Part shown: one piece after another, positions 35,082 through 53,021 of the stretch
Numbering within the stretch: position 1 is the stretch's first letter
Layout: every line of letters starts with the position of its first letter
From: Bdellovibrionales bacterium
GTDB lineage: Bacteria; Bdellovibrionota; Bdellovibrionia; Bdellovibrionales; JAGQZY01
Reading direction: 5' to 3'
NCBI GenBank assembly: GCA_964230555.1
Contig: CAXRIX010000169.1
Location: 862-64,861 of the forward strand
Length of the DNA: 64,000 nucleotides
Position numbers and translations under genes: made by a program
The notes under the pieces: model-generated
Seen by the model: the letters and a program-made list of their open reading frames with translations, nothing else
What the model was told of the DNA's origin: nothing
Database searches by the model: none

Positions 35082-37016
35082 TTATTTTTTAAATAGGGAA
35101 CCGACCACATCTTTTAAATCAAGTTGCATGATATTGGTCATGCCACCTTTGCGACCACCAGACAACTGACTGAGTTCACGTCGGGCACTGATAAAACCAT
35201 TGTCGATGCTGAGTGCGGTATTAAAATACTTACGGCTTTTTTCTCTATCACCAAGCAGATTGTAGAAAAGTCCACGACAGTGGTAGTAGGCGGCCGAGTC
35301 GCGTGCTTCGATGGGAATTTGATTCAAACGTTTATCGATATCGGCCATAAAAGCTTCGCTCAGTTGCTTGACTAGCTTCATTTCGACCCAACACAGATGG
35401 GTGCGAATTTCTGGCGAGTTGGGATTCAGTTTGATGGCTTTCTGCAAGGTATGACGAGCTTGCGAAAACTGCCCTTTGTTTACCAAGTTTCTGGCCTGGT
35501 CAAACAGTTGATCTCCTTGCATGAGCATTTCAGACTGTCCAGCCTCAAGGCGGTCCAAGTAAGCCACTTTTTTATCTTCTTTTTTCAGGGTGTCGTAGGC
35601 CACCTGAATTTTCTCGAAAACTTTTTCGGAAAGCTCTTTGATTTGAGGAGGCGCTGTTTTTGATAGTTTGTCTGGGTGAAGCACTTTCGCCAAGTCAAAG
35701 TAGGCTTTCTTGATATCACCATCTTTAGCACTACGACTCACACCCAGGCGTTCGAAAAAGTTTTTATTCTCTAACTCATGTTCAAGCTTTTGTAGACGCT
35801 TGGCTTGATGAGAGAAATTCAATGTTTTATGAGAGTTGCTAATCTCTACAAATCCCATGATATTAAAAAAGTGAATCAGTCTTAAAACGCTGGCTTCAAT
35901 ACTTGAGTTGTTAGTTAGCAATTCTTCTAAACTGGTGCCGCGCGACAGTTGGCCTTCAATCGAGGGAAGGGTTCGCGAAACAAAAGGGAAAATTCGAGCT
36001 TTATTAATCTCTTCACTTTTTTCTTGATCAAATTCGATAAGATTTTGACTTAATGGGAGGTAGTGCGTTTTTAGCCAATCTTCGCGCATTGTATTTTCGA
36101 TCGTATCCAACATAAATTGATTGAAGTCGTTGTCATCAATAGTCGCAATGGTCGCGATATCCTCAGATTTTACAAAATTCAATTCCATCTGGGAGTCGGC
36201 GATGAGTCGTTTTAAGCGCCAAACCAATTGCTCTTTTAAAACGATATTGATGGCGTGGGGGCTGACATAATTGTTTTCAACCAAGTACTGTCCGATGCGT
36301 TTATTATTGGCATTGCCATCAAGAGCCTCATTAAGGTCGGCACGGTCAAGGTACCCTTGCTCGACTAAAAGAAGTCCCAACAAAGAGGCTTCATTTTTAA
36401 TATTAACCTGAACAATTTTACCTTTAGAAAGGCCGACGCCAGCAATATCGCCATTGGTACAAGCAATATTCAAATGACCGGTGGCTTTGGTATCCATTAA
36501 AATTTTAAACACCCAGGGCAAATCAAAATTATGCAAACCCTCGGAGTTGTTAATGAGCTTAATCAATTTGCGAGTTTTAATTTCGCGATCAAGATAAAGG
36601 CGTACCAGGGGGTTGAAGCCATCTTCGTCTTCATCGACGCCACTGAATAGACCTTCCAGTTCATCAACAAATTTCTTTAAATCAATAGGCTTAGTCAAAA
36701 AGGCTTTGGCCTCAGACTTTTTCACAGCCGAGTTGATAAATTGCTTATCTTTAAAGATTCCGCTGATCAGATAGATATGGGGGTCGCCCGCCATCTGCGC
36801 TTTTATTCTTTTTACCAGCTCCAAACCATTCATTTTTGGCAGCATACAGTCGACAATAAGGACATGGACATCTTGCAGTTTCGTGTAGCTGAGGGCCTCA
36901 GCTGGCGTGTGGACCATATAGCAGCGAAATCCCACTTTGGTAATAGCGCGCTTTAAGCTTTCGCTAAAACTTTTGTCATCGTCTATAATTAGAACATTGT
37001 AATCCTGATAACCCAT
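35082..37016 (-). CDS. Response-regulator receiver / DUF4388-like / DnaJ J-domain / TPR multidomain protein
   Basis: The REC domain has DDD, D56 (LIVDCMLP) and TKP. The DUF4388-like segment reads ATGHLNIACTNGDIAGVGLSKGKIVQV. The J-domain is FFERLGVSRSAKDGDIKKAYFDLAKVLHPDK (HPD at aa 447-449). TPR-like repeats form the C-terminus. Confidence 0.75.
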   Translation of the reverse strand: MGYQDYNVLIIDDDKSFSESLKRAITKVGFRCYMVHTPAEALSYTKLQDVHVLIVDCMLPKMNGLELVKRIKAQMAGDPHIYLISGIFKDKQFINSAVKKSEAKAFLTKPIDLKKFVDELEGLFSGVDEDEDGFNPLVRLYLDREIKTRKLIKLINNSEGLHNFDLPWVFKILMDTKATGHLNIACTNGDIAGVGLSKGKIVQVNIKNEASLLGLLLVEQGYLDRADLNEALDGNANNKRIGQYLVENNYVSPHAINIVLKEQLVWRLKRLIADSQMELNFVKSEDIATIATIDDNDFNQFMLDTIENTMREDWLKTHYLPLSQNLIEFDQEKSEEINKARIFPFVSRTLPSIEGQLSRGTSLEELLTNNSSIEASVLRLIHFFNIMGFVEISNSHKTLNFSHQAKRLQKLEHELENKNFFERLGVSRSAKDGDIKKAYFDLAKVLHPDKLSKTAPPQIKELSEKVFEKIQVAYDTLKKEDKKVAYLDRLEAGQSEMLMQGDQLFDQARNLVNKGQFSQARHTLQKAIKLNPNSPEIRTHLCWVEMKLVKQLSEAFMADIDKRLNQIPIEARDSAAYYHCRGLFYNLLGDREKSRKYFNTALSIDNGFISARRELSQLSGGRKGGMTNIMQLDLKDVVGSLFKK

Positions 37017-37487: not shown

Positions 37488-38621
37488 TTAGAACATAAAT
37501 CGTCGACTACCGACAGACGCGACTATGCCCAAAGAGGTCATAAATGTGACCATGCTTGAGCCTCCGTAGGACAACAGAGGCAGTGGGACTCCCACAATAG
37601 GCAACAATCCAGCCACCATTCCGATATTAATCAGCAAATGCCAAAAGATAAAAGCGGCGACACCCACACAGATAAGAGCTCCGGCGCGATCGCCACAATC
37701 CCGGGCAATATTTAAAATAATCACAAGTAAGACTAAAAAAGTCATCAATGTGATCAAGCCTCCAATGAAACCAAACTCCTCGCTGAGAACACAGAATATG
37801 AAGTCCGAGTGACGTTCTGGCAAAAATTGAAGTTGGTTTTGTGAGCCGTCTCGGTATCCTCGTCCCAAGATTTGGCCGCTGCCAATGGCAATTTTAGCCT
37901 GAATACTGTTGTAGCCCGTGCCTCGTGGGTCACGCTCGGGGTTCAAGAAATTGCGTATCCGATTTTTTTGGTAGGGCTTTAAAGCATAGCTCCAAGCTGC
38001 GGGTAGGGAAATGGCCAAGACCGCCAAACCGGTCAGTAGCACCCGACGTCGAACTTTCAAAAAAAGGATCATCGACGACGGAATGGCCAGTAGTAAGATA
38101 GCAGTTCCCAAGTCGGGCTGCTTAGCCGTTAGCAAAAACGGGATTCCTAGAATCAGGCCTGGTTTGATAAGATCTTTGTAGTCAAAGTTTTCTAATTTAT
38201 TTCGAGCCAGGAAGCCGGCCATGAAGAGAATCAAAAAAAACTTCATCGACTCGGATGGCTGGTAATTGAATACCATAAGATCCAACCATCGGCGCGATCC
38301 GTAAATCCGTTTTCCGATGACCAGTACCAGCATCAAGGCAATTAAGTTCATCCAGTAAAAGGCCGGCGAGAACCGAATCAGATGTTTGTAGTCAATTCGT
38401 GAAACCACTAAAAAGGCCACCCAACCAATGGCAATCCAAATCAATTGCGAGCGAAAAACTCCGGTCAGGTGATCGGTGGAGTACGCTGCGCTGTAAAGGT
38501 TGATAATACCAATGATTTGTAAAACAAAAATCACCAAAGCAAAGTCCCAATTGAACTTCTTTAGAGCTGTGCGACTTTCAATTTTTAAATCAAGACTTTG
38601 GCTTAGCATTTTTCTCGTCAA
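37488..38621 (-). CDS. rodA: Peptidoglycan glycosyltransferase RodA (FtsW/RodA/SpoVE family)
   Basis: Polytopic membrane protein with QPSESMKF, DLGTA, PERHSDFIF and LPLLSYGGSS motifs. Lies downstream of mrdA. Confidence 0.9.
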   Translation of the reverse strand: MTRKMLSQSLDLKIESRTALKKFNWDFALVIFVLQIIGIINLYSAAYSTDHLTGVFRSQLIWIAIGWVAFLVVSRIDYKHLIRFSPAFYWMNLIALMLVLVIGKRIYGSRRWLDLMVFNYQPSESMKFFLILFMAGFLARNKLENFDYKDLIKPGLILGIPFLLTAKQPDLGTAILLLAIPSSMILFLKVRRRVLLTGLAVLAISLPAAWSYALKPYQKNRIRNFLNPERDPRGTGYNSIQAKIAIGSGQILGRGYRDGSQNQLQFLPERHSDFIFCVLSEEFGFIGGLITLMTFLVLLVIILNIARDCGDRAGALICVGVAAFIFWHLLINIGMVAGLLPIVGVPLPLLSYGGSSMVTFMTSLGIVASVGSRRFMF

Positions 38622-40551
38622 CTCTCATGTTGTGATATTTTTTAAAGTAAGCTTCAAAAACCTCTTTGGCAATAGGGACAGCGGCGGCCGACGTGCAAGA
38701 GTGCTCAGTCAAAACGGCTATCGTTATCTGCGGTTCACCCTCTACAGTGCCATATCCGGCAAACCAACCGTTATGCTTTTCCTGTTTTCTTCGCTTCGGG
38801 CAGGGTTTGTAAATCTGATCAGCTGAAAACCGACGAACTTGGGCGGTTCCGGTTTTTCCGGCCACACTAAAAGGTTTTTTGAACTGAGTGCGGCGAGCCG
38901 TTCCCTGGCGGCCATTCACCACTCGCCAAAGCCCTTCTTTAACCACTTTGAAATGTTTCTTATCAACAAAGTAGTCGGCGTCTTTGTCCTCTGAAAGGTT
39001 TCGCTCAAGGATCGGCGTGAAAGACTTTTGTTCAAATTCCCAATCGGGATCGACCGGTGCTTCCATTTTTTTAATAATCTGGGGTTTGTAAACCGCTCCA
39101 TCTAAAGCGATCGCCGAGTAGGCCTGGGCCAACTGAATAGTGGTCACTAAAACATGCCCCTGACCGATGGCGGTGTTAAGGCTTTCGCCATCTTGCCACG
39201 GCTCACCCCAGCGCTTTTTCTTCCAGGCGCTGGTCGGCACATGTCCTTTGACTTCGCCGCGAATTGGAATCCCTGTGGTCTGTCCAAGCCCCAGAGCATT
39301 GGCGTACTTGGACATTTTGTCGGGACCAAGTTCAAGTCCCAGTTTGTAAAAAAACACATTACTAGAACGCTCCAAAGCTTCGCGAACTTCAATGTACCCT
39401 TGCCCGGTTTGGGTGTGGTCATGCCAAACTCTTCGTCCAAGCCGGTAAGTGGCAGGGGCGTGCACATGCTCATTGGCTTTGATGGCCCCTTCTTGTAACC
39501 CCGCTAAGGCAACGATCGGTTTGAAGGTTGACCCGGGAGCATAGTGATCTTGAATGGCTTTGTTGCGCAAAGGGCGATCCGAGTTGTTGACCCATTTTCG
39601 CCAGACCTCGGGACTCAATCGCTTGGAAAACTCGTTGGGGTCGAAACTGGGATAACTAACCCAAGCCAGAATTTCTCCTTCCGGGGTCATAGCAATCAAA
39701 GAACCGACGCGGTCAAATTTTTGAAAAGCCTCGGAGGCTTTCTGCTGAAGTTCAATATCCAATGTCGTAAAAATATCCGAGCCTGGAGTTGGAGGCGTGT
39801 TTTTTAAAATTTCTCCAATCGCACTCATCCGTTGTTGGGTGCGCTCTTGTCCTTTGGCATCGACAATCACAAAGGATTGCCCCTTCATACCTCGCAAATT
39901 GATATCAAAGGCCTCTTCGAGCCCTTTTTTACCAACAATATCTTTTTGTTTAAATTTGATTTTGTTGTCATACAACTTGTTCAGCCTTGGAATTTCTTTT
40001 TTTGAGATTTCACGAACGTAACCCAGCGTGTGCGCCACTTCACCGGCGTAGGGGTAGTGGCGAAGAATAAACTCTTGTGCATCCAAACCGGAATGATCAA
40101 GTTTGATGAGTTCGACTTTAAAAAGTTCATCACGGGTCAGGTGGCGCTTGATATCGACTGGAAAAAACGGACCATTCTGACGTTTCGATTTTTTCACTCG
40201 ATCGACGATGTCTTTGGGCTCCATTTCGAGGGCTGGGGCGAGGTCTTTGGCTAAGTTCTCCAAATTGTCAGTGTACTGAGGCGTGATGACGGCCTTGTAG
40301 GCCGGAAGGTTTTCAACCAAAACTTTGCCATCACGATCGTAGATGCGGCCTCGGGGGGCATAAACATCCGAGGATTTTAAAAGGTTTTTATTAGAGAATT
40401 CTCTGAACTCCTCACCGTGAATGATTTGCAGATACCAAAGTCGGCTGATCAGAATCATGACGAAAATCAGCATAACAGCTTTGGCCGCTTTAAAATTAAT
40501 ATCAAAATCGAAATGACCGGAGTCGTCTGAGGGCTGAAAAAACTTTGTCAT
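38590..40551 (-). CDS. mrdA: Penicillin-binding protein 2 (elongasome transpeptidase)
   Basis: N-terminal anchor, then APGSTFKP (SxxK), a SSN motif and KTGTAQ (KTG). Confidence 0.9.
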   Translation of the reverse strand: MTKFFQPSDDSGHFDFDINFKAAKAVMLIFVMILISRLWYLQIIHGEEFREFSNKNLLKSSDVYAPRGRIYDRDGKVLVENLPAYKAVITPQYTDNLENLAKDLAPALEMEPKDIVDRVKKSKRQNGPFFPVDIKRHLTRDELFKVELIKLDHSGLDAQEFILRHYPYAGEVAHTLGYVREISKKEIPRLNKLYDNKIKFKQKDIVGKKGLEEAFDINLRGMKGQSFVIVDAKGQERTQQRMSAIGEILKNTPPTPGSDIFTTLDIELQQKASEAFQKFDRVGSLIAMTPEGEILAWVSYPSFDPNEFSKRLSPEVWRKWVNNSDRPLRNKAIQDHYAPGSTFKPIVALAGLQEGAIKANEHVHAPATYRLGRRVWHDHTQTGQGYIEVREALERSSNVFFYKLGLELGPDKMSKYANALGLGQTTGIPIRGEVKGHVPTSAWKKKRWGEPWQDGESLNTAIGQGHVLVTTIQLAQAYSAIALDGAVYKPQIIKKMEAPVDPDWEFEQKSFTPILERNLSEDKDADYFVDKKHFKVVKEGLWRVVNGRQGTARRTQFKKPFSVAGKTGTAQVRRFSADQIYKPCPKRRKQEKHNGWFAGYGTVEGEPQITIAVLTEHSCTSAAAVPIAKEVFEAYFKKYHNMRVDEKNAKPKS

Positions 40552-41063
40552 TATATTCGCAAATTCTCCAATGTATCGATTCTTTCATATTCAATTCTTT
40601 GAGTCACCATGTCCAAGGCCATAATAATCAAAGGGGCGACGACAAGGGTGGCCAAAGAACTGCCCAGCCAGCTGAGGGCGGGGGGCCAATCCCACTGGCC
40701 CCAATACAGTTCGCGCAGCCAATGCATCGATTGAAAAATAAAAAATCCACCAGCAGCTCCCAGTGCGATGTGGATGGGTTTGGTGTGGAATCTTTCTCGA
40801 ATGATATAAAAGGCGAGGGTCATCAGATTCATCTGAATCAGCATGGGCGCCCAAGCCACTGTTGAAAAAGCCGCTACCACGAACAAATGAGGGATATTAA
40901 TCCACAAACAAAACAGCAGACTTTTGCGAAATGAATAAAAAGTCAGAACAATGAACCAGACCGCAGGAAGGGGGATCGGAAAGAAGTAGAGACTGCCCTG
41001 TAGACCAGAGAGTAAAAAACTCACGCTCAGGTAGGTTATTGCCGACCATACGGACTTTTTCAT
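40551..41063 (-). CDS. mreD: Rod shape-determining protein MreD
   Basis: 170-aa polytopic membrane protein located between mreC and mrdA, with overlapping stops/starts. Confidence 0.6.
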   Translation of the reverse strand: MKKSVWSAITYLSVSFLLSGLQGSLYFFPIPLPAVWFIVLTFYSFRKSLLFCLWINIPHLFVVAAFSTVAWAPMLIQMNLMTLAFYIIRERFHTKPIHIALGAAGGFFIFQSMHWLRELYWGQWDWPPALSWLGSSLATLVVAPLIIMALDMVTQRIEYERIDTLENLRI

Positions 41064-41893
41064 CTTTTCGCCTGTTTGTTACTTGGCTTTTTCTCAACGA
41101 TGACCAAGACCTCTTCGACATGATCAATCTTAACAGCGGGTTTGATTGTGGCTTGGTAGCTGACGGCGGTCGGGCTTGGATTGACCTCAACCACTTCACC
41201 AATTGTGAAGCCTTTAGGGAAATAGCCTTGGCTACCACTGGTCACCACCAAGTCGCCGGGTTGAGCATCCAGTTTTCGCATCATGTATTTAAGCTGGTAA
41301 AACTGATTGGTTGCGCCTGAGACGATCCCTCGCGCCCGTGTTCGCTGAACCAAAGCATCAATACTGGCATGTTGGTTGGCCAGCGGCAAAACCCGTGAAC
41401 TACCAGGCTCCACCTCGATAACGTAGCCAATAACACCCGCTGCCGCGATCACTCCTTGCAGGCGCTCGACGCCATCATCGCTTCCTTTATCGATGGTGAA
41501 CGAGCGTTGATTTGACAGAATATCTTTTGCAATCACCCGGGCGGCTCGGGTTGTTCGAGGCAGTTCCTTTTGAAATTTAAAAAGCTCGCGAAGACGAATA
41601 TTTTCTGTTCGATACTCTTCGAGCAATTGGATTTGCGAGGCCATTTTCGCATTTTCGACAGTCAGAGCTCGATTGTCGACGTTGGTGTCGACTAAGTAAA
41701 AGTAAGTGTTGAGACTGTCTTGGATTTTATGAGTGAATTGGTCATAGGTGCTTTGCACCCAGTGAGCTGGTTTTTGCAAAGGAGTGCCTTGAGCTGTGCT
41801 AAAAGCTCCCTTTTGCAGCGCATAAAAAATCAGAGCGGGAACAAAGATAAGAAAAAAAGATACCGTCTGTTTCCAATTCCACGAATTCCCCAT
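41060..41893 (-). CDS. mreC: Rod shape-determining protein MreC
   Basis: N-terminal TM helix, then a coiled coil (ENAKMASQIQLLEEYRTENIRLRELF), then GSDDGV..GVIG.V beta domains. Start chosen at ATG 41893 (MGNSWNWKQTVSFFLIF...); ATG 41980 is the alternative. Confidence 0.7.
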   Translation of the reverse strand: MGNSWNWKQTVSFFLIFVPALIFYALQKGAFSTAQGTPLQKPAHWVQSTYDQFTHKIQDSLNTYFYLVDTNVDNRALTVENAKMASQIQLLEEYRTENIRLRELFKFQKELPRTTRAARVIAKDILSNQRSFTIDKGSDDGVERLQGVIAAAGVIGYVIEVEPGSSRVLPLANQHASIDALVQRTRARGIVSGATNQFYQLKYMMRKLDAQPGDLVVTSGSQGYFPKGFTIGEVVEVNPSPTAVSYQATIKPAVKIDHVEEVLVIVEKKPSNKQAKR

Positions 41894-41999
41894 ATATTGA
41901 GAGGTATCAAATAGTGCCAAGAATTCCAATTGGAAAAAGCACCTGGGCAAGGTATGTTGTTTTCTTGTCCAAAAATCCATCGCATCTCTGGAGGTCAAT

Positions 42000-43472
42000 G
42001 TGTTTGAGGGAGTGACGAAACGTCGAAAGAACCCAATTATTAATATTTTTGGTTGGACCCTTTTAATTATCGTTTGTGTGGTCTTTGTCTTTATTGGGTT
42101 TTCTCCAAATTCGAACTTTTTAGGTCGCGGTGGGGCTGCTGCCCAAGTCAACGGTGATGCCATCAGCCTGCGTGAGTTCAAAGAATTATTGGATCGACTG
42201 GATAGCAGTCAGCAGGCCGGTACAAGCCAGGAAGCTCGACAGAAAATGCAGGCCAACGCGATTGATATTTTGGTGAAAAGGTCTTTGATTGTTCAAGAGG
42301 CGGAAAAACTAAATATCCATGTCAGCGATTACGAAGTGGCGCAGGAGTTAAAGAGCATTGAGGCCTTTTACGAAGATGATGTCTTCAGTCGCTATCGTTA
42401 TAAAAAGTACCTTCAGCAAGCCCGTATGTCAGAAGGTGAGTTTGAAGATCGAATTCGCCGGGATCTGATTATCCGCAAAATGAGTGAATTGATTGGTTTT
42501 GCAGCAAAAGACTTGGATATGATGGATCAGTTTGATGAAAAAATTGATCAAGCTCAGGTTAACGTGGGTTACGTGAAACTTTCGCCGGCAACAATTGGCA
42601 AGGTTAAAACGAGTCCAGCGACTTGGGCCGCCAAACACGAAGGCGAGATTAAGGACTACTATCAAAACCATAAATCGGAGTTCACCATCCCCGAGCAGGT
42701 GAAAGCGCGACATATATTGGTTAAGGCAAAAGATAAAACCAAAGAAAGTATGGATAAAGCAAAGGCCAAGATGGTGGAAATTGCTTCGAAGACCAACGTC
42801 GACAATTTCGCAAAAATGGCGAAAAAGCACTCTGACGATCCCGGCTCGAAAGCCAAAGGGGGAGACCTTGGGTTTTTTCCTCGTGGTCGTATGGTTCCTG
42901 AGTTTGAAAAGGCGGCCTTCTCGACAAAAAAAGGCAAGATCACAGAGCCTGTTGAGACCCAGTATGGGTATCATATAATCTTAGTGGAAGATAAAAAAGA
43001 CGAGCGTGAGGAAAGCTTTGAGGAAGTAAAAACTCAGATCGCCACGCAGTTGATGCAGGATAATGCCTATGAGTCGTCCTTAGATGAGGTTAAAAAGCTT
43101 TTAAAAGAAGACAAGTATGGCGAGCTTGAGGACTATCTTGGTGGTAAAGGCTTGCGATGGACCACCACCGGATTCTTTGGAATCACTAAAGAGACCATTC
43201 CAGGAATTGGATCAAATAAAGACTTTTTAGATGTGGCTTTAACTTTAAGCCCAGAAAAAGAGTATGGCGATCGATTGGTCTACCAGGGTGAGAGTGCCTA
43301 TCTATTAAAATATAAAGGTGCAAAACTGAGCCCCAGTTCTCAGCAAAACCCACAGATGGATTTTTTCAAGCAGCTGATGAAGCAGCAGAAAATGAATGTG
43401 TTGGTACAAAACTGGACAGAGTCTTTAAAAGAAAAGGCTTCTGTTAAGGTGAATCCCGAACTTCTTCAGTAG
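42000..43472 (+). CDS. Periplasmic chaperone/peptidyl-prolyl isomerase, PpiD-like (SurA-N plus parvulin domains)
   Basis: GTG start 5 nt after GGAGG. N-terminal anchor. The parvulin core reads VKARHILVK...GGDLGFFPRGRMVPEFEKAAF...GYHIILVED. Confidence 0.8.
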   Translation: MFEGVTKRRKNPIINIFGWTLLIIVCVVFVFIGFSPNSNFLGRGGAAAQVNGDAISLREFKELLDRLDSSQQAGTSQEARQKMQANAIDILVKRSLIVQEAEKLNIHVSDYEVAQELKSIEAFYEDDVFSRYRYKKYLQQARMSEGEFEDRIRRDLIIRKMSELIGFAAKDLDMMDQFDEKIDQAQVNVGYVKLSPATIGKVKTSPATWAAKHEGEIKDYYQNHKSEFTIPEQVKARHILVKAKDKTKESMDKAKAKMVEIASKTNVDNFAKMAKKHSDDPGSKAKGGDLGFFPRGRMVPEFEKAAFSTKKGKITEPVETQYGYHIILVEDKKDEREESFEEVKTQIATQLMQDNAYESSLDEVKKLLKEDKYGELEDYLGGKGLRWTTTGFFGITKETIPGIGSNKDFLDVALTLSPEKEYGDRLVYQGESAYLLKYKGAKLSPSSQQNPQMDFFKQLMKQQKMNVLVQNWTESLKEKASVKVNPELLQ

Positions 43473-43584
43473 ACTTCTCGAAAAGTCTGCTCTCGTCTTT
43501 ACAATCAAGATATTTTTTAGCTTTGTCTCATAGTGAGGCAAAGCATTTCGAGTTGAAAAATCTTTTTTTTTTCATGTTTTTGTC

Positions 43585-43611
43585 TTAATTTTTAGATCCA
43601 AAGTCCGATAG
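43585..43611 (+). promoter_or_regulatory. Sigma-28-like motif directly upstream of the subtilase-PilZ gene
   Basis: TTAATTTT-N11-TCCGATAG gives 6/8 and 6/8 matches to TAAAGTTT-N11-GCCGATAA. It shares the 10-mer AAGTCCGATA with the fliL promoter candidate. The -10 element ends only 6 nt before the GTG start. Confidence 0.3.
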
Positions 43612-43617
43612 ACTTTT

Positions 43618-45471
43618 GTGGGGCATTTAAGACCGTTTTTACTTATTGTAGCCGTTTTGTTTTCACCGCTTGTCTGGGCGCAGAACTACGTTCCAGGAGA
43701 GGTGATTGTCAAACTTAAGGATCAATCCCAAGCTCAGGTTGGTAAAGCATCAACGAAAGCGGCGATGTCGAAAATCGCTAATGAAAATGGACTGCAATTA
43801 AAACGCTCATGGAAGCGTTTTAATATGCACAGCTTTAAAGTCGGCAAAGGCAAGAGTGTTGAGCAGGTGGTCAACGACCTTCATTTTGATGACAACGTCG
43901 AATACGCCGAACCTAACTATATATTTAATAAACAAAGTGCTGGTATCGAAGGTCAACCAATGAGTTTTTCAGAAATGGAGGCTCAGGCTGCGAATTCCGG
44001 CTACAGTGGCAGTGGCTTTGGTCAAACTTCAGCCAATATTGATGCCGAACAGGCTTGGACGATTTTAAGTAATCTTCCCGACAAACCTGTGGTGGCCGTT
44101 ATTGATTCTGGAGTGGATTACAATCACTACGTGTTTGTGGAAAGCGGTGCCATCTGGGAGAACGAAGACGAGATCCCTGGCAACAACATTGATGACGATG
44201 GCAATGGATACATCGATGATGTTCGAGGTTGGAACTTTGTTTCAGACACCAACAATCCGATGGATGATGACAACCATGGAACCCATGTGGCGGGAATCGT
44301 TTTGGGTATGACCCAAGATATCTTGGCGTCCACTCTTGATGAGTCCATCATCAAAATTATGCCTTTGAAATTTCTCGACAATCAAGGGGTTGGAACAACC
44401 TCAGATGCTCTTGAAGCAATTAACTACGCCATCAATAATGGTGCTCATGTGTTAAATAACTCTTGGGGTGGCGGCTCTTACAGTCAAGCTTTGCAAGATG
44501 TCATTGTGCAAGCCTACAATGGTGGGCACTCCTTTATTGCGGCGGCAGGGAATTCGGCCAATAATAATGACGCCAGTCCTGTTTATCCGGCTAACTATGA
44601 TGTGCCGAACGTGGTATCGATTGCGGCCACAAGTTCTAGTGATGGTTTGGCGAGTTTCTCAAATTTTGGTGCCAGCTCGGTTCATGTTGCGAGCCCTGGT
44701 ATTTCAATTCTAAGCACACTACCTAATGATTCATTCGGATATTCTTCGGGTACAAGTATGGCAGCACCGTTTGCTGCTGGATTGGCCGCATTGATGATTC
44801 GCGAAAAAGGTGAGATTAATGGTTATCAGGTTAAAGGGGTTCTTTACGAATACTCGCAACTGATTGGTGGTCTTGCTGGAAAAGTGGCTAGCCAATCCAG
44901 AATCAATGCCTTTGATGCCATTGATTTTGTGCAAAACAACAATATCGATAGCTATCAACCGGAATACTCTCCCGTTTCACGGAGTGTTGCTTCGGGAGCG
45001 GCCGCTGCTGGTGGTGGCTGTGGACTGATTGGTGGCGCCTCACAAGGTCGAACCGGTCCGCCATCTGGGGGTAAGGTTCTTCTTTTCCTCGGACTTCTAT
45101 TTGCGCCGGTTATTTTGATGAACATTCTGCGTATTCGAAAGCAGAAAATGATCGAAAGTCGCCGCCAATTTCCTCGCTACAAAATGGATTCGGAAGTGCG
45201 GATCAATGTTGGAGGCAAACAGCTTGTTGGTAACATGAGCTCAATTTCACTGGGTGGTGCGCGTATTGATACCGATGCCCTGCTTGAAAAAGGTGGAGTT
45301 GTGACTCTTAACATTGCCAGCCCAGAAGGTGACCAACAGGTCGAAGTCCAAGGTCGAATTGTCTGGAGTGAAGACAAGAAGGCTTATGGTGTTCAGTTCT
45401 GTGAAACTGGAGATGATGCGGCTGCAGCCATTGGACTCTGGACCAAAAAATTATCCAAAAACAAGGCCTAG
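43618..45471 (+). CDS. Subtilisin-like serine protease (S8) fused through one TM helix to a C-terminal PilZ-like domain
   Basis: Signal peptide and an I9-like propeptide (VPGEVIVKLKD...VEYAEPNYIF). The catalytic triad is AVIDSGVD / HGTHVAG / SGTSMAAP. The TM helix VLLFLGLLFAPVILMNIL is followed by RIRKQK. The tail then carries RRQFPR and ...SISLGGARI..., which are PilZ motifs. Confidence 0.85.
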   Translation: MGHLRPFLLIVAVLFSPLVWAQNYVPGEVIVKLKDQSQAQVGKASTKAAMSKIANENGLQLKRSWKRFNMHSFKVGKGKSVEQVVNDLHFDDNVEYAEPNYIFNKQSAGIEGQPMSFSEMEAQAANSGYSGSGFGQTSANIDAEQAWTILSNLPDKPVVAVIDSGVDYNHYVFVESGAIWENEDEIPGNNIDDDGNGYIDDVRGWNFVSDTNNPMDDDNHGTHVAGIVLGMTQDILASTLDESIIKIMPLKFLDNQGVGTTSDALEAINYAINNGAHVLNNSWGGGSYSQALQDVIVQAYNGGHSFIAAAGNSANNNDASPVYPANYDVPNVVSIAATSSSDGLASFSNFGASSVHVASPGISILSTLPNDSFGYSSGTSMAAPFAAGLAALMIREKGEINGYQVKGVLYEYSQLIGGLAGKVASQSRINAFDAIDFVQNNNIDSYQPEYSPVSRSVASGAAAAGGGCGLIGGASQGRTGPPSGGKVLLFLGLLFAPVILMNILRIRKQKMIESRRQFPRYKMDSEVRINVGGKQLVGNMSSISLGGARIDTDALLEKGGVVTLNIASPEGDQQVEVQGRIVWSEDKKAYGVQFCETGDDAAAAIGLWTKKLSKNKA

Positions 45472-45533
45472 CCTCGGCTAGGACTGGACAACCCCAGAAG
45501 GCGTGATATTCTGCGGTCTTCTGGAGGTTTCCG

Positions 45534-46124
45534 ATGCGGTCAATCCTAACCTTTTCTCTGATTCTTTTTTCAACTCTGGCTTTTGGAAAAAACCAGAGCT
45601 GCACTTACGAATTCGATGTAGAAAACTCGAAAGTGGAAGGCACAGGATACAAATTTACGGAAAAAACGGGCGTTACGGCAAGCTTTCCCGGTTTTGAGTT
45701 GAATAAACAATCCAAGGCTGAATCTCCTAAAGCATTACTCGATGGACTTGTGGTGACTGTCAATTTGGTCACCATCGATTCCGGCAATGCCCTTCGAGAT
45801 AAAAATATGCGAGAGACTCTTTTGACTGGAATCCTTGGGGATTCTGTGGCGACAGTGACAGTTAAAAAAGTGACAGACAAATCCATAGAGACGGAATTTA
45901 AGATTAATGAGAAAACTCAAAAAATTGACTTTAAATACAGTTTAAAAGACTCAATCATGACAGCCAAAGGCTCGTTTGATGTCTTGAAGTTTGCTATGGG
46001 AGAGCAGGTGGCGGCCTTGAAAAAACGCTGTGGCTCTTTGCATACAGGAGCCGATGGAAAGTCTGTCACCTGGACAGAATTTGATGTGGCGGTCACAGCC
46101 ATGATTAAAAAGAACTGTCAGTAA
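45534..46124 (+). CDS. YceI-like periplasmic lipid/polyisoprenoid-binding domain protein (tentative)
   Basis: Signal peptide, a beta-rich fold and ...VNLVTIDSGNALRDKNMRETLL, which resembles the YceI signature. Confidence 0.45.
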   Translation: MRSILTFSLILFSTLAFGKNQSCTYEFDVENSKVEGTGYKFTEKTGVTASFPGFELNKQSKAESPKALLDGLVVTVNLVTIDSGNALRDKNMRETLLTGILGDSVATVTVKKVTDKSIETEFKINEKTQKIDFKYSLKDSIMTAKGSFDVLKFAMGEQVAALKKRCGSLHTGADGKSVTWTEFDVAVTAMIKKNCQ

Positions 46125-47596: not shown

Positions 47597-49477
47597 CTAA
47601 ATACTGTAGGGGATCGGTATGCCCATGCATTCGCAAGTGGCTTTTAAAAACTCCATTTCATTGGCATTGATTTCACCATCAAATTCAACCGTGCGAAGCA
47701 TGGCCTCGAAAAGCTTTTCTTTATCCTGCGGTTTCAGTTCGGCCAGAATTTGTAAAAGATCACGAAAGCTACGAAGTGACATTTGATGGACTTCGTTGGC
47801 AAAAGACACATTAAGACCTAAAGTCTTCATGGTCTCAGTAAAGACCCAGCGGGCTTTGTTGGTATTTTCGTTGCCGTGTAGACAAAGAGCCGAAATTAAA
47901 TAACCCACCGATTGCTGGCTTTGCACTAAGCTTCGGTTGTTTCGTTCGGCTCGAAAAGAATTTTCGATCAGGTGCATTTCAATAAGGAAGTAAAGTGAAA
48001 CCTCGTTAAGGTCGACCTCCGAGTCAGCTTTCACCATGTATTCGCAGGTTTTCAAAAATATTTGCTTTTCCGGCAACTCCATTTCTCGCAGGATGGGAAT
48101 GCAGTGGTGAAGGGCAGGGAGTACGTTTTTTCTTTCCATTCGTAGCAATTCCAGTCGTCGCTGTGAAAACTCAGCGACCAATTCATCACTTCGATAGGTT
48201 TCGACAACGGCGTGGCCTTCACTGGAATCACCGGAAAGATTCAAAAGGGCGAGAGCGATCGCTTGAGCTTGCAAAGTTTCAGAGCGATTTTCGGAGATCT
48301 CAGGCAACAGTGAGTTCATCATCACACTGACAGATGCTAAGTTTTCGGGGGTGGGTTCACCGATAGCATTGATGACATCTTTTGCGGAAATATTCTTTTT
48401 TGGGGTGGGTTTTTGAATTTCTGAGACCTCTGGTTTATGTAAAACAGTTTTTAAAAAGCCGGGCTCTAAAAAACGTTTATCGATACGAGCAATCCGCTCT
48501 TTCAGTGGAGGGTGAGTGGCATTCAATGAAAAAGCGGAGGCTTTCAAGGGGTTTTCAAAGCACATATGACTGACTTCTTCGGCGCCGGCAAAATTCAAAA
48601 CCGATGAATTCTGGCCAATTTTTGCAAGTGCTCCAGCAATTCCCGCTGGATACCGGGTGAACTGAACAGCACTGGCGTCGGCTAAGAATTCTCGCTGGCG
48701 AGACACTGCTGAACGAATCATCCGACCGACAAAGACACCCACGGATCCAACAATCCACAGGCTCAAGCCGACAAACAAAATCAAAAACAGAGCACCCCCG
48801 GAGTCTCTGCTCGAGCGGGAGCGCGAGCGTCCCACCATTCGAAACACCGTTCGACCCATAACCCCTATTGTGACAAGTCCCGCTAAATAGCCCAATAACT
48901 GAACGTTTAAACGTGTGTCACCATTGAGAATGTGACTGATCTCGTGGGCCACCACTCCTTGCAATTCATCACGAGTTAAATTTTCGAGACAGCCTTGTGA
49001 TACAGCGATGACTGATGTCTGTGGAGTCAACCCTGCAGCAAAAGCGTTGATGGATTTTTCAGAGGTCAATATATAGAGAGGTGGGGGTGTCATCCCAGCG
49101 GCAATCGCCATCTCTTCAACAACATTTAAAGCCCGCTTAACATGAGGTTTGTGCTTGATAAGGTGAGCTTCGGTTCCCCCCATATAACGAGCGATACCGC
49201 GTCCTTTACCTCCCAGTTGAATTTTTTTAAATAAAGCGCTGAGGAGAATGACCAAAAGAGTGGCGCCGGTAATCGCCAAATAGAGATCATAGTCCTTGCT
49301 TGGAGGAGCCTCGAAAATCGGCTTGATTCCGCGATTGGAATCGGCCTTAATCAGTTCGATCACAACCCAGCCGACGAAATTGGTCATAAATACAATGCCT
49401 ACAACCGCTATAAAAAATAGAAACACTAAGTAAGATGTGTTTTTTTTCGCCTGCCTTTGATGTTCAAAGAAATTCAT
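47597..49477 (-). CDS. M48 family (HtpX-like) membrane metallopeptidase with a long C-terminal extension
   Basis: TM helices flank the HEISHILNGD (HExxH) motif. The ~270-aa helical C-terminal region ends DGEINANEMEFLKATCECMGIP, which is TerB-like by eye. Confidence 0.8.
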   Translation of the reverse strand: MNFFEHQRQAKKNTSYLVFLFFIAVVGIVFMTNFVGWVVIELIKADSNRGIKPIFEAPPSKDYDLYLAITGATLLVILLSALFKKIQLGGKGRGIARYMGGTEAHLIKHKPHVKRALNVVEEMAIAAGMTPPPLYILTSEKSINAFAAGLTPQTSVIAVSQGCLENLTRDELQGVVAHEISHILNGDTRLNVQLLGYLAGLVTIGVMGRTVFRMVGRSRSRSSRDSGGALFLILFVGLSLWIVGSVGVFVGRMIRSAVSRQREFLADASAVQFTRYPAGIAGALAKIGQNSSVLNFAGAEEVSHMCFENPLKASAFSLNATHPPLKERIARIDKRFLEPGFLKTVLHKPEVSEIQKPTPKKNISAKDVINAIGEPTPENLASVSVMMNSLLPEISENRSETLQAQAIALALLNLSGDSSEGHAVVETYRSDELVAEFSQRRLELLRMERKNVLPALHHCIPILREMELPEKQIFLKTCEYMVKADSEVDLNEVSLYFLIEMHLIENSFRAERNNRSLVQSQQSVGYLISALCLHGNENTNKARWVFTETMKTLGLNVSFANEVHQMSLRSFRDLLQILAELKPQDKEKLFEAMLRTVEFDGEINANEMEFLKATCECMGIPIPYSI

Positions 49478-49480
49478 TGT

Positions 49481-50065
49481 CTAGAATTGCACCTTAATGG
49501 GCTCTTTAATGGCCGCGTTTTCTATTTCAAAAGGATAAGCGGGGTTGAATCCAAAACTGCCTGCAATAAGGCTGTTAGGAAAAGATTCACGAGCATTGTT
49601 GTAATGCATGACGCTGTCATTAAACGATTGCCGTGCATAGGAAATCTTATTTTCGGTGCTGCTTAACTCCTCCATAAGGTCTTTCATCACACCATCGGCT
49701 TTTAAATCAGGATAGTTTTCAAACAATAGCATCATTTTACCCATGTTTTGTGCCAAGCGCCCCTCAGCCTGATTTAACTCGCCAACGGCTTTGGTGTTTG
49801 CTGGATTTTTCGAGACATCCTGTGCCGCCGACTGAGCTTGGTTACGTGCTTGTATGACAGCTTCAAAGGTTTCCTTTTCATGAGACATAAACTTTTTAGC
49901 TGTTTCAACAAGATTAGGTATAAGATCGTAACGTCTTTGCAGCTGGACATCGATTTGCGCGAATGCATTTTTAAATGCGTTTCGTAAACGTACCAAGTTG
50001 TTATAAATACCAATTATAAAAAAAGCGATCAAAACAGTGATCCCTAATCCGATCCATAGGCCCAC
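49481..50065 (-). CDS. lemA: LemA family protein
   Basis: N-terminal TM helix, then YNNLVRLRNAFKNAFAQIDVQLQRRYDLIPNLVETAK...ENYPDLKA. Its stop lies 3 nt upstream of the M48 gene start. Confidence 0.9.
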   Translation of the reverse strand: MGLWIGLGITVLIAFFIIGIYNNLVRLRNAFKNAFAQIDVQLQRRYDLIPNLVETAKKFMSHEKETFEAVIQARNQAQSAAQDVSKNPANTKAVGELNQAEGRLAQNMGKMMLLFENYPDLKADGVMKDLMEELSSTENKISYARQSFNDSVMHYNNARESFPNSLIAGSFGFNPAYPFEIENAAIKEPIKVQF

Positions 50066-50262: not shown

Positions 50263-51582
50263 TTATTGAGTTGAAACCACAAGATCAACACGACGGTTGG
50301 TGCGACGGCCCTTTTTGGTGTTGTTACTCACGAGAGGTTGGTTTTCTCCAAAACCTTTTGTTGTGAGTTCATAATTCGGATTGTTGGTCGCCATTAAAGC
50401 TGAAACGGCCTCTGCTCGCTTCATAGACAGCTTTTTGTTCATTTCACTGCTGCCTTGCGAGTCTGTATGCCCTTGAATTTCGACACTTTTAGGGTCGAGA
50501 CCTTTCAGAGTGCTCTGAATGTTGGTGATCAACTGTTTGGCGTCATTAGGGATTTTAGCTGAACCGACTGGGAAGTCGATGTTCTTCAAACGAATGATCA
50601 TTTTCTCACCCTGCACATAAGCTTCGGCTTGTGACTCAGGAATCTTTTTTCTAATTTTTTCCATTGTCTGTTCGTAAGCCAACTTTTCTTTAGTCGACAA
50701 TAGAGTCTTTGAGGTGTCGATTAAATTGGATCGAGTCTCTTTAAGATTCCCTTCCACAGTGTTCAGAGTACTGGATAGCTTTCCGATTTTCCGATCGTTA
50801 AACACGAGTTGTCTAGCCACATGTTCTGGTGATCCTTTGGCCGGACCTGTTAATTTATTCATGACATCCTTTAACAACTTGGCAGATCGGTTGGCTTCCA
50901 TCACTTGTTCTTTGTAATTACTTGGATCGCGGGGATTGTGCTGAATTTGATTAACAGCGCTGGCCAAATCGGTGCGGGCATCCTTTAATGTGTTGGAGGC
51001 GAGGTCTTCAGCATCTTGAGACACTGCACTTTCAATCACGCTTTCAATCTGACCGGTCTCGCGAGCCACCACGGCTGAGGTTTCCAGTTTGTTGTATCGA
51101 GTTTGAAAAGTTGAACTCTCATCAACAGACAGTTCGTCTGTGAACGTATCGGTTTCATCGCGATAGTCGTGGTCAATCTCTGACAGCTTTTCATTAAGCT
51201 CAGTCGTCGGTAACCCGTTGCTGATGGCTTGTTTTCGAGCCGTAAGAATTGAGGAGTTAACTCGTCCTTTACGAGACATCGCCTTTTTCTCGGCTTCGAG
51301 AAAATGCGCTTTGGCCATGCCCAAGCTCTCCATCACTTCCTCTTTCTCATCGCCTTCTTTCATATCTTCTCGGGCCTCTTGCAAGTCTTCAGTCCCTGCG
51401 TTGAACTCTTCATGAGCCAGGAAATCGACCTGTTTGGATTGAAGTTTCCCGGCGAGGTTGGCGACCTCCTGAGCCGCATCACCCATTGAACGACTTTCAA
51501 GGGGCGCTTTTTCCACCGTGGTACATTGGGTGCCGAGAAGCACGAGACTGGCAAACACACTTAAGCGTAAAAACTTATTCAT
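50263..51582 (-). CDS. OmpA-family lipoprotein with a long helical N-terminal region
   Basis: Lipobox LLGTQC. The C-terminal OmpA-like domain reads VEIQGHTDSQGSSEMNKKLSMKRAEAV...NRRVDLVV. An AGGAG RBS is present. Confidence 0.85.
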   Translation of the reverse strand: MNKFLRLSVFASLVLLGTQCTTVEKAPLESRSMGDAAQEVANLAGKLQSKQVDFLAHEEFNAGTEDLQEAREDMKEGDEKEEVMESLGMAKAHFLEAEKKAMSRKGRVNSSILTARKQAISNGLPTTELNEKLSEIDHDYRDETDTFTDELSVDESSTFQTRYNKLETSAVVARETGQIESVIESAVSQDAEDLASNTLKDARTDLASAVNQIQHNPRDPSNYKEQVMEANRSAKLLKDVMNKLTGPAKGSPEHVARQLVFNDRKIGKLSSTLNTVEGNLKETRSNLIDTSKTLLSTKEKLAYEQTMEKIRKKIPESQAEAYVQGEKMIIRLKNIDFPVGSAKIPNDAKQLITNIQSTLKGLDPKSVEIQGHTDSQGSSEMNKKLSMKRAEAVSALMATNNPNYELTTKGFGENQPLVSNNTKKGRRTNRRVDLVVSTQ

Positions 51583-52934: not shown

Positions 52935-53021
52935 TGGTACCGACGGCGAGACTCGAACTCGCACAGTATTGCTACCGGGGGATTTTGAATCCCCTGCGTC
53001 TACCAATTCCGCCACGTCGGC
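52935..53021 (-). tRNA. tRNA-Leu (anticodon CAA)
   Basis: The reverse complement folds as a cloverleaf. The acceptor stem is GCCGACG/CGTCGGT, and the D-arm is GCG-GAATTGGTAGA-CGC. The anticodon stem is GGGGA/TCCCC with loop TTCAAAA. It has a 15-nt variable arm, T-arm GCGAG-TTCGAGT-CTCGC, discriminator A and an encoded CCA. Length 87 nt. Confidence 0.9.

Follow-up and report, generated by a model that had tools for sequence, protein, structure and literature searches.

A single open reading frame in a Pseudobdellovibrionaceae genome was found to encode an exported subtilase together with a PilZ domain, raising the question of whether such a fusion is genuine and, if so, whether a PilZ domain inside the cell could govern a protease outside it. 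The stretch of DNA analysed (hereafter, the window) comprises 64,000 nucleotides. The frame opens with a GTG codon, preceded by an in-frame stop 9 nt 5' of the start, and its product is a type I inner-membrane protein whose parts follow in the order signal peptide, prodomain, S8 domain, Gly/Ala linker, one transmembrane (TM) helix and PilZ domain (Table 1). This is the architecture put forward in a preliminary description of the DNA, and each of its elements, from the signal peptide, prodomain and S8 protease to the TM helix and the PilZ tail, was recovered by Pfam searches and hydropathy.

Table 1. Coordinates of the S8-PilZ gene, its parts and its upstream neighbour in the window (slash, signal peptide cleavage site).
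Feature	Residues (aa)	Position (nt)	Strand	Evidence or remark
Upstream neighbour: PpiD-like membrane-anchored periplasmic chaperone (SurA_N_3 + PPIC rotamase)		42000..43472	+	Pfam
Whole ORF: pre-pro-subtilase, linker, TM helix, PilZ	617 aa	43618..45471	+	stop codon 45469..45471
Sec-type signal peptide (MGHLRPFLLIVAVLFSPLVWA/Q)	1-21	43618..43680	+	hydropathy; cleavage inferred from A-x-A-like VWA
Fervidolysin/I9-type N-terminal prodomain	21-100	43678..43917	+	PF22148 (Fervidolysin_NPro-like), E 4e-12
Peptidase_S8 catalytic domain	156-410	44083..44847	+	PF00082, E 3.7e-48, 164.7 bits (cut-off 21.8)
Catalytic Asp (VIDSGVD)	D163	44104-44106	+	
Catalytic His (HGTHVAG)	H220	44275-44277	+	
Oxyanion-hole Asn	N312	44551-44553	+	
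Catalytic Ser (SGTSMAAP)	S380	44755-44757	+	
Gly/Ala/Ser-rich periplasmic tether with C468-G469 (GGGCGLI)	446-486	44953..45075	+	pLDDT <50 (aa 456-480); C468-G469 invariant
Tether Cys codon	C468	45019-45021	+	
Single TM helix (VLLFLGLLFAPVILMNIL) with Pro497	487-504	45076..45129	+	Kyte-Doolittle mean 2.3
Juxtamembrane basic cluster RIRKQK	505-510	45130..45147	+	directly after the helix
PilZ domain	515-601	45160..45420	+	PF07238, E 3.3e-18, 66.4 bits (gathering score 22.5)
RxxxR motif	R516..R520	45163-45177	+	invariant
Second motif S-I-S-L-G-G	S542-G547	45241-45258	+	aligns with [D/N]hSxxG
C-terminal alpha-helix of the PilZ module	599-615	45412..45462	+	W608, T609 and L612 nearly invariant

The survey of S8 plus PilZ architectures called for in the preliminary description yielded approximately 355 distinct protein clusters (90% identity) from NCBI, ENA, JGI and Logan assemblies, all of them combining PF00082 with PF07238 in a single ORF. 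Every homologue with an organism name belonged to the Bdellovibrionota, and divergent members still carried the S8 and PilZ domains, the Cys motif, the Pro of the TM helix and RxxxR. A genome scan with one narrow peptide pattern recovered 76 loci, all from Bdellovibrionales, a restriction partly due to the narrowness of the pattern; the set of full-length genomic homologues comprised 68 sequences. The S8-PilZ arrangement is, in sum, a conserved gene of the Bdellovibrionota. These data also bear on the possibility that the fusion is an artefact, that is, a secreted protease gene merged with a separate pilZ gene through frameshift, chimeric assembly or faulty ORF calling, for which the preliminary description had singled out positions 45000-45160 or thereabouts. 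Nothing was found in favour of such a merger, which is practically discounted: the reading frame is uninterrupted in the window and runs as one at 68 genome loci, megabase-size contigs among them, and the presence of both domains in each of the independent homologous clusters rules it out.

The architecture itself is not a discovery, having stood in domain catalogues since at least 2008. The view that no subtilase-PilZ fusion had been described finds no support in Tripathi & Sowdhamini 2008, who listed a "Subt-PilZ" protein (NP_969350.1) of Bdellovibrio bacteriovorus HD100 (PMC2605481), in a 2020 review in which Peptidase_S8 appears among the catalytic partners of PilZ (PMC7288161), or in the JGI annotation of some members. 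The window protein adds a further member to this already catalogued S8-PilZ family; it shares with the HD100 protein the two-domain combination (Pfam Peptidase_S8+PilZ) and the phylum, a likeness drawn from the listed architecture. The publications on this combination give the architecture only, without topology, motif analysis or function, and the literature yielded architecture listings but no functional study of any S8-PilZ member. What is new here is the Ser or Thr at the D/N position of the second PilZ motif, the invariant Cys of the GCG motif and Pro of the TM helix, and the ppiD-like/mreCD-pbp2 context.

With respect to this context, the S8-PilZ gene usually comes after a ppiD-like gene and beside mreCD-pbp2; of the 56 related loci with enough flank, 38 had the ppiD-like gene as the immediate upstream neighbour in the same orientation, and the true start of this gene in the window is probably downstream of position 42000. 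Scanning of the neighbours with Pfam detected no partner, substrate or diguanylate cyclase gene nearby. Rfam gave no c-di-GMP riboswitch match in the window or in positions 43300-43800, and nothing informative emerged when the DNA between ppiD and the S8 gene was scanned for promoters and terminators.

Hydropathy analysis resolved only two hydrophobic segments in the protein, aa 1-26 and aa 481-508. The first one corresponds to the signal peptide (ending in PLVWA/QNY), which has no lipobox Cys, and 54 of the 68 homologues had a comparable hydrophobic stretch near the N-terminus, scored as present when the Kyte-Doolittle mean over 12 residues reached 2.0 or more in the first ~70 aa. The prodomain that follows showed a beta-alpha-beta-beta-alpha-beta fold in the full-length model and aligned structurally with pro-subtilisins; of the I9-like propeptide originally claimed, the prodomain stood, while its family proved to be PF22148 (fervidolysin-type) and not Inhibitor_I9 itself. 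The S8 domain includes a DDDGNGYIDD loop (aa 192-201), and in the conservation alignment (37 sequences, namely the window protein and 36 homologues) the three catalytic residues and the oxyanion-hole N312 were invariant (37/37). The signal peptide and the complete catalytic triad of the preliminary description were both borne out, the profile search with PF00082 that it had proposed giving a score far above the cut-off (Table 1). Judging by these residues, the N-terminal part would be a catalytically complete S8 subtilase, and its predicted placement in the periplasm rests on the Sec signal peptide, the prodomain (of the inhibitory/chaperone kind) and the completeness of the subtilase.

The closest solved structure of the catalytic domain was deseasin MCP-01 from Pseudoalteromonas sp. 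SM9913 (3vv3; phmmer E 4.5e-65), with 42% identity in the Foldseek alignment and a TM-score of 0.80 on the target. The likeness to this enzyme and to thermitase-type S8A subtilases lies in the catalytic domain: deseasin is a secreted soluble enzyme, and its crystallised chain has neither a TM anchor nor a PilZ domain. The top NCBIfam match was the mycosin model TIGR03921, yet identity with mycosins was rejected, the score (87.8 bits) being far below the equivalog cut-off (278.75). Mycosins (MycP, the subtilases of type VII secretion) also belong to S8; a signal peptide directs their export, and a C-terminal TM helix anchors them in the membrane. The window protein resembles them in being an S8 protease with a signal peptide and a TM helix anchor; it differs in its PilZ tail, which mycosins lack, and in the absence of a T7SS context.

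The protease is held on the TM helix by a flexible tether of approximately 40 residues with an invariant Cys. The tether, which is the Gly/Ala-rich linker described beforehand, was disordered in the full-length model (pLDDT <50 for aa 456-480); C468 and G469 were invariant in 37/37 aligned sequences, and a C-G or C-A motif was found in all 68 full-length genomic homologues as well as in 8 divergent ones. The core of the second hydrophobic segment coincides exactly with the TM helix as first delimited (Table 1), and its Pro497 was invariant in the 36 aligned homologues, a Pro being present in the helix of 68/68 full-length genomic homologues. Unless the protein forms oligomers, conformational signals pass only poorly through a lone TM helix. 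In the model, the helix of the TM segment continues unbroken (aa 485-515) into RxxxR, whose arginines start only ~10 residues past the membrane exit. The orientation proposed from the positive-inside rule, on account of RIRKQK directly after the helix, was consistent across the 68 full-length homologues, with 6.35 K+R per 15 residues after the helix vs. 1.5 before it, and a mean net charge of +4.9 in the C-terminal flank vs. +0.3 in the N-terminal one. Based on this bias, the PilZ tail is predicted to lie on the cytoplasmic side.

A PilZ beta-barrel plus helix makes up the last 113 residues in the model. PF07238 matched the tail alone with 71 bits, somewhat above the score obtained with the whole protein, and the predicted structure (pLDDT 78) consisted of a six-strand barrel (strands 17-27, 30-39, 43-47, 57-63, 70-80 and 85-92, in tail numbering) and a C-terminal helix (95-111). 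The top 30 or more Foldseek matches were PilZ domains, headed by that of Alg44 with c-di-GMP (4rt0; E 1.5e-6, TM-score 0.74-0.76) and including those of MotI, VCA0042, MapZ and BcsA, so that both the profile search and the comparison with PilZ barrels envisaged in the preliminary description gave positive results. In Alg44, the P. aeruginosa alginate co-polymerase, one TM helix connects a PilZ domain in the cytoplasm with a domain in the periplasm, an arrangement like that of the window protein. In Alg44, however, PilZ is N-terminal, the periplasmic part is MFP/HlyD-like and no protease, the second motif is a canonical DxSxxG, and sequence identity to the window tail is only 16-20% (Foldseek).

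Concerning the ligand-binding motifs, RRQFPR begins at nt 45160 as had been noted, and the RxxxR within it is that of R516 and R520, with a further Arg beside it supplied by R515 or R517. These two arginines, S544, G546 and G547 were invariant in the 37 aligned sequences and kept in the most divergent members, and the invariance of RxxxR argues for the retention of nucleotide binding. The segment GNMSSISLGGARI (aa 538-550), likened beforehand to (D/N)xSxxG, conforms only in part to [D/N]hSxxG as defined in 10.1101/814665: the h, S and G positions are conserved (I543, S544 and G547), but the D/N position holds Ser (S542), and N539 lies outside the motif. At position 542 the alignment contained S in 30 sequences, T in 6 and C in 1; the 76 genome loci showed S/T, rarely R/K, and N was present in one of the 8 divergent members, so that among all members examined the position was never D and only once N. 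The closest non-S8 PilZ relatives retain D/N. Since the residue is replaced in the family and kept in these relatives, the affinity or specificity of S8-PilZ tails for c-di-GMP may differ from the canonical one. Loss of D/N alone does not abolish binding, given that PA2989, a PilZ protein without D/N (xxSEGG), binds c-di-GMP with a reported KD of 2.88 uM (10.1101/2020.02.11.943704, preprint).

At the sequence level, the only PDB matches of the tail profile were non-canonical Xanthomonas PilZ proteins (3dsg, 4f48 and 3cnr), and these were weak (E 0.03-0.1). Non-canonical Xanthomonas PilZ docks to FimX/PilB, which provides the model for a different role of the tail, namely that of a nucleotide-independent adaptor that has lost high-affinity c-di-GMP binding and docks the protease to a cytoplasmic partner or the cell pole, the fusion then controlling localisation and not activity. 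Such a role would agree with these matches, with the non-conservation of the second-motif D/N across the family and with the well-documented existence of non-binding PilZ classes (10.1101/814665, 10.1101/2020.02.11.943704). It nevertheless appears unlikely, considering that the RxxxR arginines, S544, G546 and G547 are invariant even in the most divergent members, that known non-binding PilZ proteins are without these motifs altogether (10.1101/2020.02.11.943704), and that the best structural matches were canonical ligand-bound PilZ domains.

The conserved features around the membrane suggest another possibility, in which a processing or sorting element, made up of the Cys motif together with the Pro-bearing helix and the basic residues after it, frees the mature protease. 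Processing might consist of intramembrane or juxtamembrane cleavage or of autoproteolysis of the tether, with the periplasm, the surface or the prey as destinations, and PilZ might gate the cleavage or merely stay behind. The order of Cys signature, hydrophobic helix with Pro and Arg/Lys cluster resembles that of the tripartite Cys-type sorting signals MYXO-, JDVT-, Synerg- and CGP-CTERM, among which Synerg-CTERM likewise carries an invariant TM Pro (10.1101/2023.06.07.544157); moreover, the Cys, Pro and basic features were kept in 68/68 homologues, and the disorder of the tether would leave it accessible to proteases. Against this, the element is never C-terminal, being always followed by the PilZ tail (105-118 aa, mostly 109), and Cys and helix are separated by 18 hydrophilic, Gly-rich residues in the window protein (5-37 residues across homologues by a cruder automatic measure), with charged residues in many homologues. 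In addition, no CPBP-type protease was detected by a motif screen of the window ORFs, whose two candidates were a trypsin-like peptidase and IF-2, or among the Pfam-scanned window proteins. Release by such an element is, on balance, quite improbable. As judged by C-terminal location, HMM match and several clients per genome (10.1101/2023.06.07.544157), a known C-terminal sorting signal was rejected, given the position of the element, the absence of any match of NCBIfam sorting-signal models to the linker/TM segment (E up to 10) and the absence of a second Cys/TM/basic C-terminus among ~830 ORFs of the window and related loci.

The best reading of the protein, to which about an even chance is given, is by analogy a one-polypeptide counterpart of the LapD/LapG system of Pseudomonas fluorescens, the precedent for inside-out control of a periplasmic protease by c-di-GMP (PMC3032545, PMC3032553). 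The PilZ tail would bind c-di-GMP or a related cyclic dinucleotide via RxxxR and [S/T]ISxGG. The RxxxR segment that clamps the ligand follows on from the TM helix without a break, for which reason binding should either turn the barrel relative to the helix or membrane or link two tails together. The tethered protease could, as a result, change in oligomeric state, in position or in its susceptibility to cleavage. Its likely substrates would be the bacterium's own envelope or surface proteins, as the protease is tethered and the gene lies in a housekeeping envelope-biogenesis region. The resemblance to LapD/LapG is functional only and inferred, residing in the proposed logic whereby cytoplasmic c-di-GMP, sensed at the inner membrane, acts on a periplasmic protease of envelope or surface proteins. 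The two are not homologous: in LapD, c-di-GMP is sensed by a degenerate EAL domain, the signal is relayed through HAMP and a separate cysteine protease, LapG, is sequestered, whereas the window protein would combine a proposed PilZ sensor and an S8 serine protease in one chain with one TM helix, and no LapD-type (HAMP-GGDEF-EAL) or LapG-type domains were present in it or in the neighbours scanned.

The domains, the PilZ fold, the topology, the continuous helix, the conservation of the fusion and the behaviour of PA2989 were counted for this c-di-GMP control model, and Alg44 was taken as a further precedent on account of its PilZ domain, single TM helix and periplasmic domain. The D/N replacement, the poor signal transmission expected of a single TM helix without oligomerisation, the lack of a partner, substrate or cyclase gene nearby and the lack of a riboswitch were counted against it. 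If correct, the model would represent the simplest known inside-out link from a cytoplasmic second messenger to extracytoplasmic proteolysis, with one chain and one TM helix, and one of the numerous orphan PilZ proteins in predatory Bdellovibrionota would thereby acquire a function. In these predators, it is c-di-GMP that controls how they enter prey, glide and change between attack and growth.

The S8-PilZ family has three features of its own: the D/N that contacts guanine has been lost ([S/T]hSxGG), and both the periplasmic Cys and the TM Pro are invariant. These features fit two further ideas: that the family is a release or sorting switch gated by a second messenger, or that it is a receptor for a different dinucleotide. 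Taken together these ideas are considered very unlikely. As a receptor of the latter kind, the tail would sense a ligand other than plain c-di-GMP, one candidate being 3',3'-cGAMP, a product of the Hypr GGDEF enzyme Bd0367 in B. bacteriovorus (PMC9140294). In a switch of the former kind, cleavage at the Cys/TM element would be licensed by ligand binding, whereupon the protease would be released, or redirected to the surface, at some defined point in the predatory cycle.

The family being large and well conserved, and with R516, R520, S542, C468, P497 and S380 as targets for point mutation, these readings are directly testable. In B. bacteriovorus, the pilZ gene Bd2545, which is not equated here with NP_969350.1, was reported to be down-regulated on leaving the attack phase (PMC2797640).

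The ORF proposed in the preliminary description was recovered at its position, and the features of its product (hereafter the window protein) were collected together with those of other loci in the window. Both the protease and the tail, i.e. the C-terminal part following the TM helix, matched the Pfam profiles expected for them, and the tail scored 71 bits in isolation. Only two hydrophobic stretches were detected by hydropathy, the signal peptide and the TM helix, the latter directly followed by RIRKQK as described; RRQFPR starts at nt 45160 and GNMSSISLGGARI occupies aa 538-550. The earlier sequence details were all correct, the sole refinement being the family of the propeptide, which is indeed present but of the fervidolysin type, Inhibitor_I9 itself not being matched.

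Features of the window protein (aa) and of other loci in the window (nt)
Feature	Position	Strand	Evidence or remark
S8-PilZ ORF	nt 43618..45471	+	617 codons; start codon GTG; in-frame stop 9 nt 5' of start
Signal peptide	N-terminal		Hydropathy; end VWA|Q
Fervidolysin_NPro-like prodomain	aa 21-100		Pfam, E 4e-12
Peptidase_S8 domain	aa 156-410		Pfam, 164.7 bits
TM helix core	aa 487-504, nt 45076..45129		Hydropathy
PilZ domain	aa 515-601		Pfam, 66.4 bits vs gathering score 22.5
Trypsin-like (S1) peptidase	nt 4021..4941	-	306 aa
Receiver/DUF4388/DnaJ/TPR protein	nt 35082..37016	-	644 aa; response-regulator receiver, DUF4388, DnaJ J-domain, TPR repeats
mreC, longest ORF	nt 41060..42181	-	
ppiD-like gene, longest ORF	nt 42000..43472	+	
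M48 peptidase	nt 47597..49477	-	626 aa; weak TerB-like C-terminal region
LemA-family gene	nt 49481..50065	-	Immediately upstream of M48 peptidase gene, co-oriented
OmpA-domain protein	nt 50263..51582		After the LemA/M48 pair
tRNA gene, single	nt 52938..53021	-	Sole Rfam match in window

In the full-length AlphaFold model (mean pLDDT 78.5), the prodomain adopted an I9-like beta-alpha-beta-beta-alpha-beta fold, the S8 core was confident, the Gly/Ala/Ser-rich tether was disordered (aa 456-480, pLDDT <50), and an unbroken helix (aa 485-515) ran from the membrane into the first PilZ motif, RxxxR. The closest solved catalytic domain was that of the secreted subtilase deseasin MCP-01 (sequence E 4.5e-65; 42% identity and TM-score 0.80 by fold). 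The catalytic triad D163/H220/S380 and the oxyanion N312 were invariant, and the DDDGNGYIDD loop largely so, in an alignment of 37 sequences comprising the window protein and 36 full-length homologues that share 47-76% identity with it.

Membrane orientation was evaluated from the two 15-residue flanks of the TM helix in 68 full-length genomic homologues. The flank before the helix contained on average 1.5 K+R (mean net charge +0.3) and the flank after it 6.35 (+4.9); this bias, together with the N-terminal signal peptide, indicates a type I orientation, in which the protease is predicted to be periplasmic and the PilZ domain cytoplasmic, as originally claimed. To our knowledge, the cytoplasm is the sole compartment where sensing of cyclic dinucleotides is possible.

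Three homology searches, seeded with the window protein, a ~44%-identical relative and a more distant one (best 120 matches each), yielded ~355 distinct 90%-identity clusters among the matches listed, all with PF00082 and PF07238; the named organisms among them always belonged to Bdellovibrionota (Bdellovibrionales, Pseudobdellovibrionaceae, Bdellovibrio sp. qaytius, Pseudobdellovibrio sp.). A scan of GTDB species genomes with the profile of the tail hit 76 loci, every one in Bdellovibrionota, a result that is no proof of restriction to this phylum because a single narrow peptide pattern was used. One of these loci, from a Pseudobdellovibrionaceae MAG (L001), was 89-99% identical to the window over eight genes (97% in S8-PilZ itself), which identifies the lineage from which the window derives. 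In an exhaustive search with the tail HMM, 145 50%-identity clusters were found at E up to 1e-10, the strongest matches being either full-length S8-PilZ proteins of ~600-680 aa or shorter proteins matching at their extreme C-terminus, which were regarded as family fragments; S8 and PilZ were also retained in eight proteins at a greater distance (~610-670 aa). A fusion artefact, that is, two genes merged by an assembly error, is excluded by the presence of both domains in the ~355 listed clusters and of a complete single reading frame in 68 genomic loci. At least two clades were distinguished: the PF22148 prodomain was detectable in most members of the one including the window protein, and mostly undetected in the other (P0345, Bdellovibrio sp. 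qaytius, Pseudobdellovibrio sp.).

The architecture is thus genuine and conserved, but already catalogued, and the window protein is one more member. The preliminary statement that no subtilase-PilZ fusion had been described was incorrect: "Subt-PilZ" NP_969350.1 of B. bacteriovorus HD100 was listed by Tripathi & Sowdhamini in 2008 (PMC2605481), according to a review from 2020, Peptidase_S8 is one of the catalytic domains partnered with PilZ in Pfam (PMC7288161), and some family members already carry both names in automatic annotation. No experimental work on any member was found in a literature search, which did not extend to the proteomic study of Rotem et al. For Bd2545, a pilZ gene of B. 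bacteriovorus that is not equated here with S8-PilZ, down-regulation at the exit from attack phase has been reported (PMC2797640).

The second-motif change, the tether Cys and the TM Pro offer new concrete handles on the mechanism of S8-PilZ; these features (the Cys as part of a Cys-Gly pair), as well as the housekeeping context, had escaped the first reading. The tail was modelled (pLDDT 78) as a six-stranded barrel with a C-terminal helix, supporting the proposed PilZ fold, and its best Foldseek matches were ligand-bound canonical PilZ domains, including those of Alg44 (4rt0; E 1.5e-6, TM 0.74-0.76), MotI, VCA0042/PlzD, MapZ, BcsA and YcgR. In register with the second motif, [D/N]hSxxG (10.1101/814665), the window protein reads S542-I-S-L-G-G547, so that the D/N position is a non-canonical Ser. 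This position was S in 30, T in 6 and C in 1 of the 37 aligned sequences, S/T and occasionally R/K in the genome loci, and N in one of the eight distant members; the nearest PilZ relatives not fused to S8 keep a normal D or N, making the substitution a derived trait of the family. Since D/N is missing, the tail could possibly be a nucleotide-independent adaptor PilZ, although the invariant arginines make this a poor fit. Conservation is complete or almost complete for RxxxR, the h residue, S544, G546 and G547, which argues that the putative ligand site is retained. PA2989, with an xxSEGG motif, was reported to bind c-di-GMP (2.88 uM; 10.1101/2020.02.11.943704), and xTISEGG was read in a few S8-PilZ members. 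The second motif is R/K-T-I-S-E-G-G, the same xxSEGG variant, in three loci of uncultured Bdellovibrio sp. (L065, L070, L073) and in L054.

The tether Cys-Gly ("GGCGLV"), 18 residues upstream of the TM helix in the window protein, and the Pro within the helix (LLFAPV) were both invariant in the alignment and present in 68/68 loci. The succession of a Cys motif, the TM helix and a cluster of basic residues resembles Cys-type tripartite sorting signals (10.1101/2023.06.07.544157) and suggests, as a rival reading, an anchor-and-release or sorting element, although it is not C-terminal, includes a hydrophilic spacer and gave zero matches to sorting-signal HMMs. Neither other sorting-signal clients nor a CPBP protease were seen in the sampled DNA. 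Speculatively, the invariant periplasmic Cys might form an intermolecular disulfide, and the resulting dimer would let a single-pass protein transmit a signal.

The protein is shown to be a periplasmic pre-pro-subtilase, tethered to the inner membrane, with a cytoplasmic PilZ domain and a juxtamembrane RxxxR. The RxxxR segment of a PilZ protein closes over the ligand and holds it on the barrel. The tail would bind c-di-GMP or a related dinucleotide. Because its RxxxR segment is an extension of the TM helix, binding would be expected either to turn the barrel relative to the helix or membrane or to link two tails; such a shift could change how the protease oligomerises, where it is placed or how readily it is cleaved. 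The nearest precedent for this layout is Alg44, in which a PilZ domain and a periplasmic domain are connected through a single TM helix. LapD/LapG, in which a periplasmic protease is under cytoplasmic c-di-GMP control (PMC3032545, PMC3032553), follows a parallel logic without homology.

The surroundings of S8-PilZ constitute a housekeeping region (lptF/G-family permease, rodA-pbp2-mreD-mreC, ppiD, yceI, nusA-infB). Of the 56 loci with enough flank, 38 have a ppiD-like gene as the same-strand neighbour immediately upstream, and mreC is divergent to the S8-PilZ side in 36/51; the ppiD-to-S8 gap (74-1030 nt, median ~195) indicates neighbours rather than a tight operon. The order rodA<-pbp2<-mreD<-mreC / ppiD-like -> S8-PilZ -> yceI-like (window 37488..46124; loci L001-L076) was kept to ~45% protein identity, with the yceI-like gene detected downstream in only 15/57 loci. 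Taken at their greatest length, the mreC and ppiD-like ORFs share ~180 nt head-to-head, so one or both of the true start codons must lie further in. Elsewhere in the window, the LemA-family and M48 peptidase genes form an operon-like pair (47597..50065, -), and the receiver/DUF4388/DnaJ/TPR protein has an unusual signalling/chaperone architecture.
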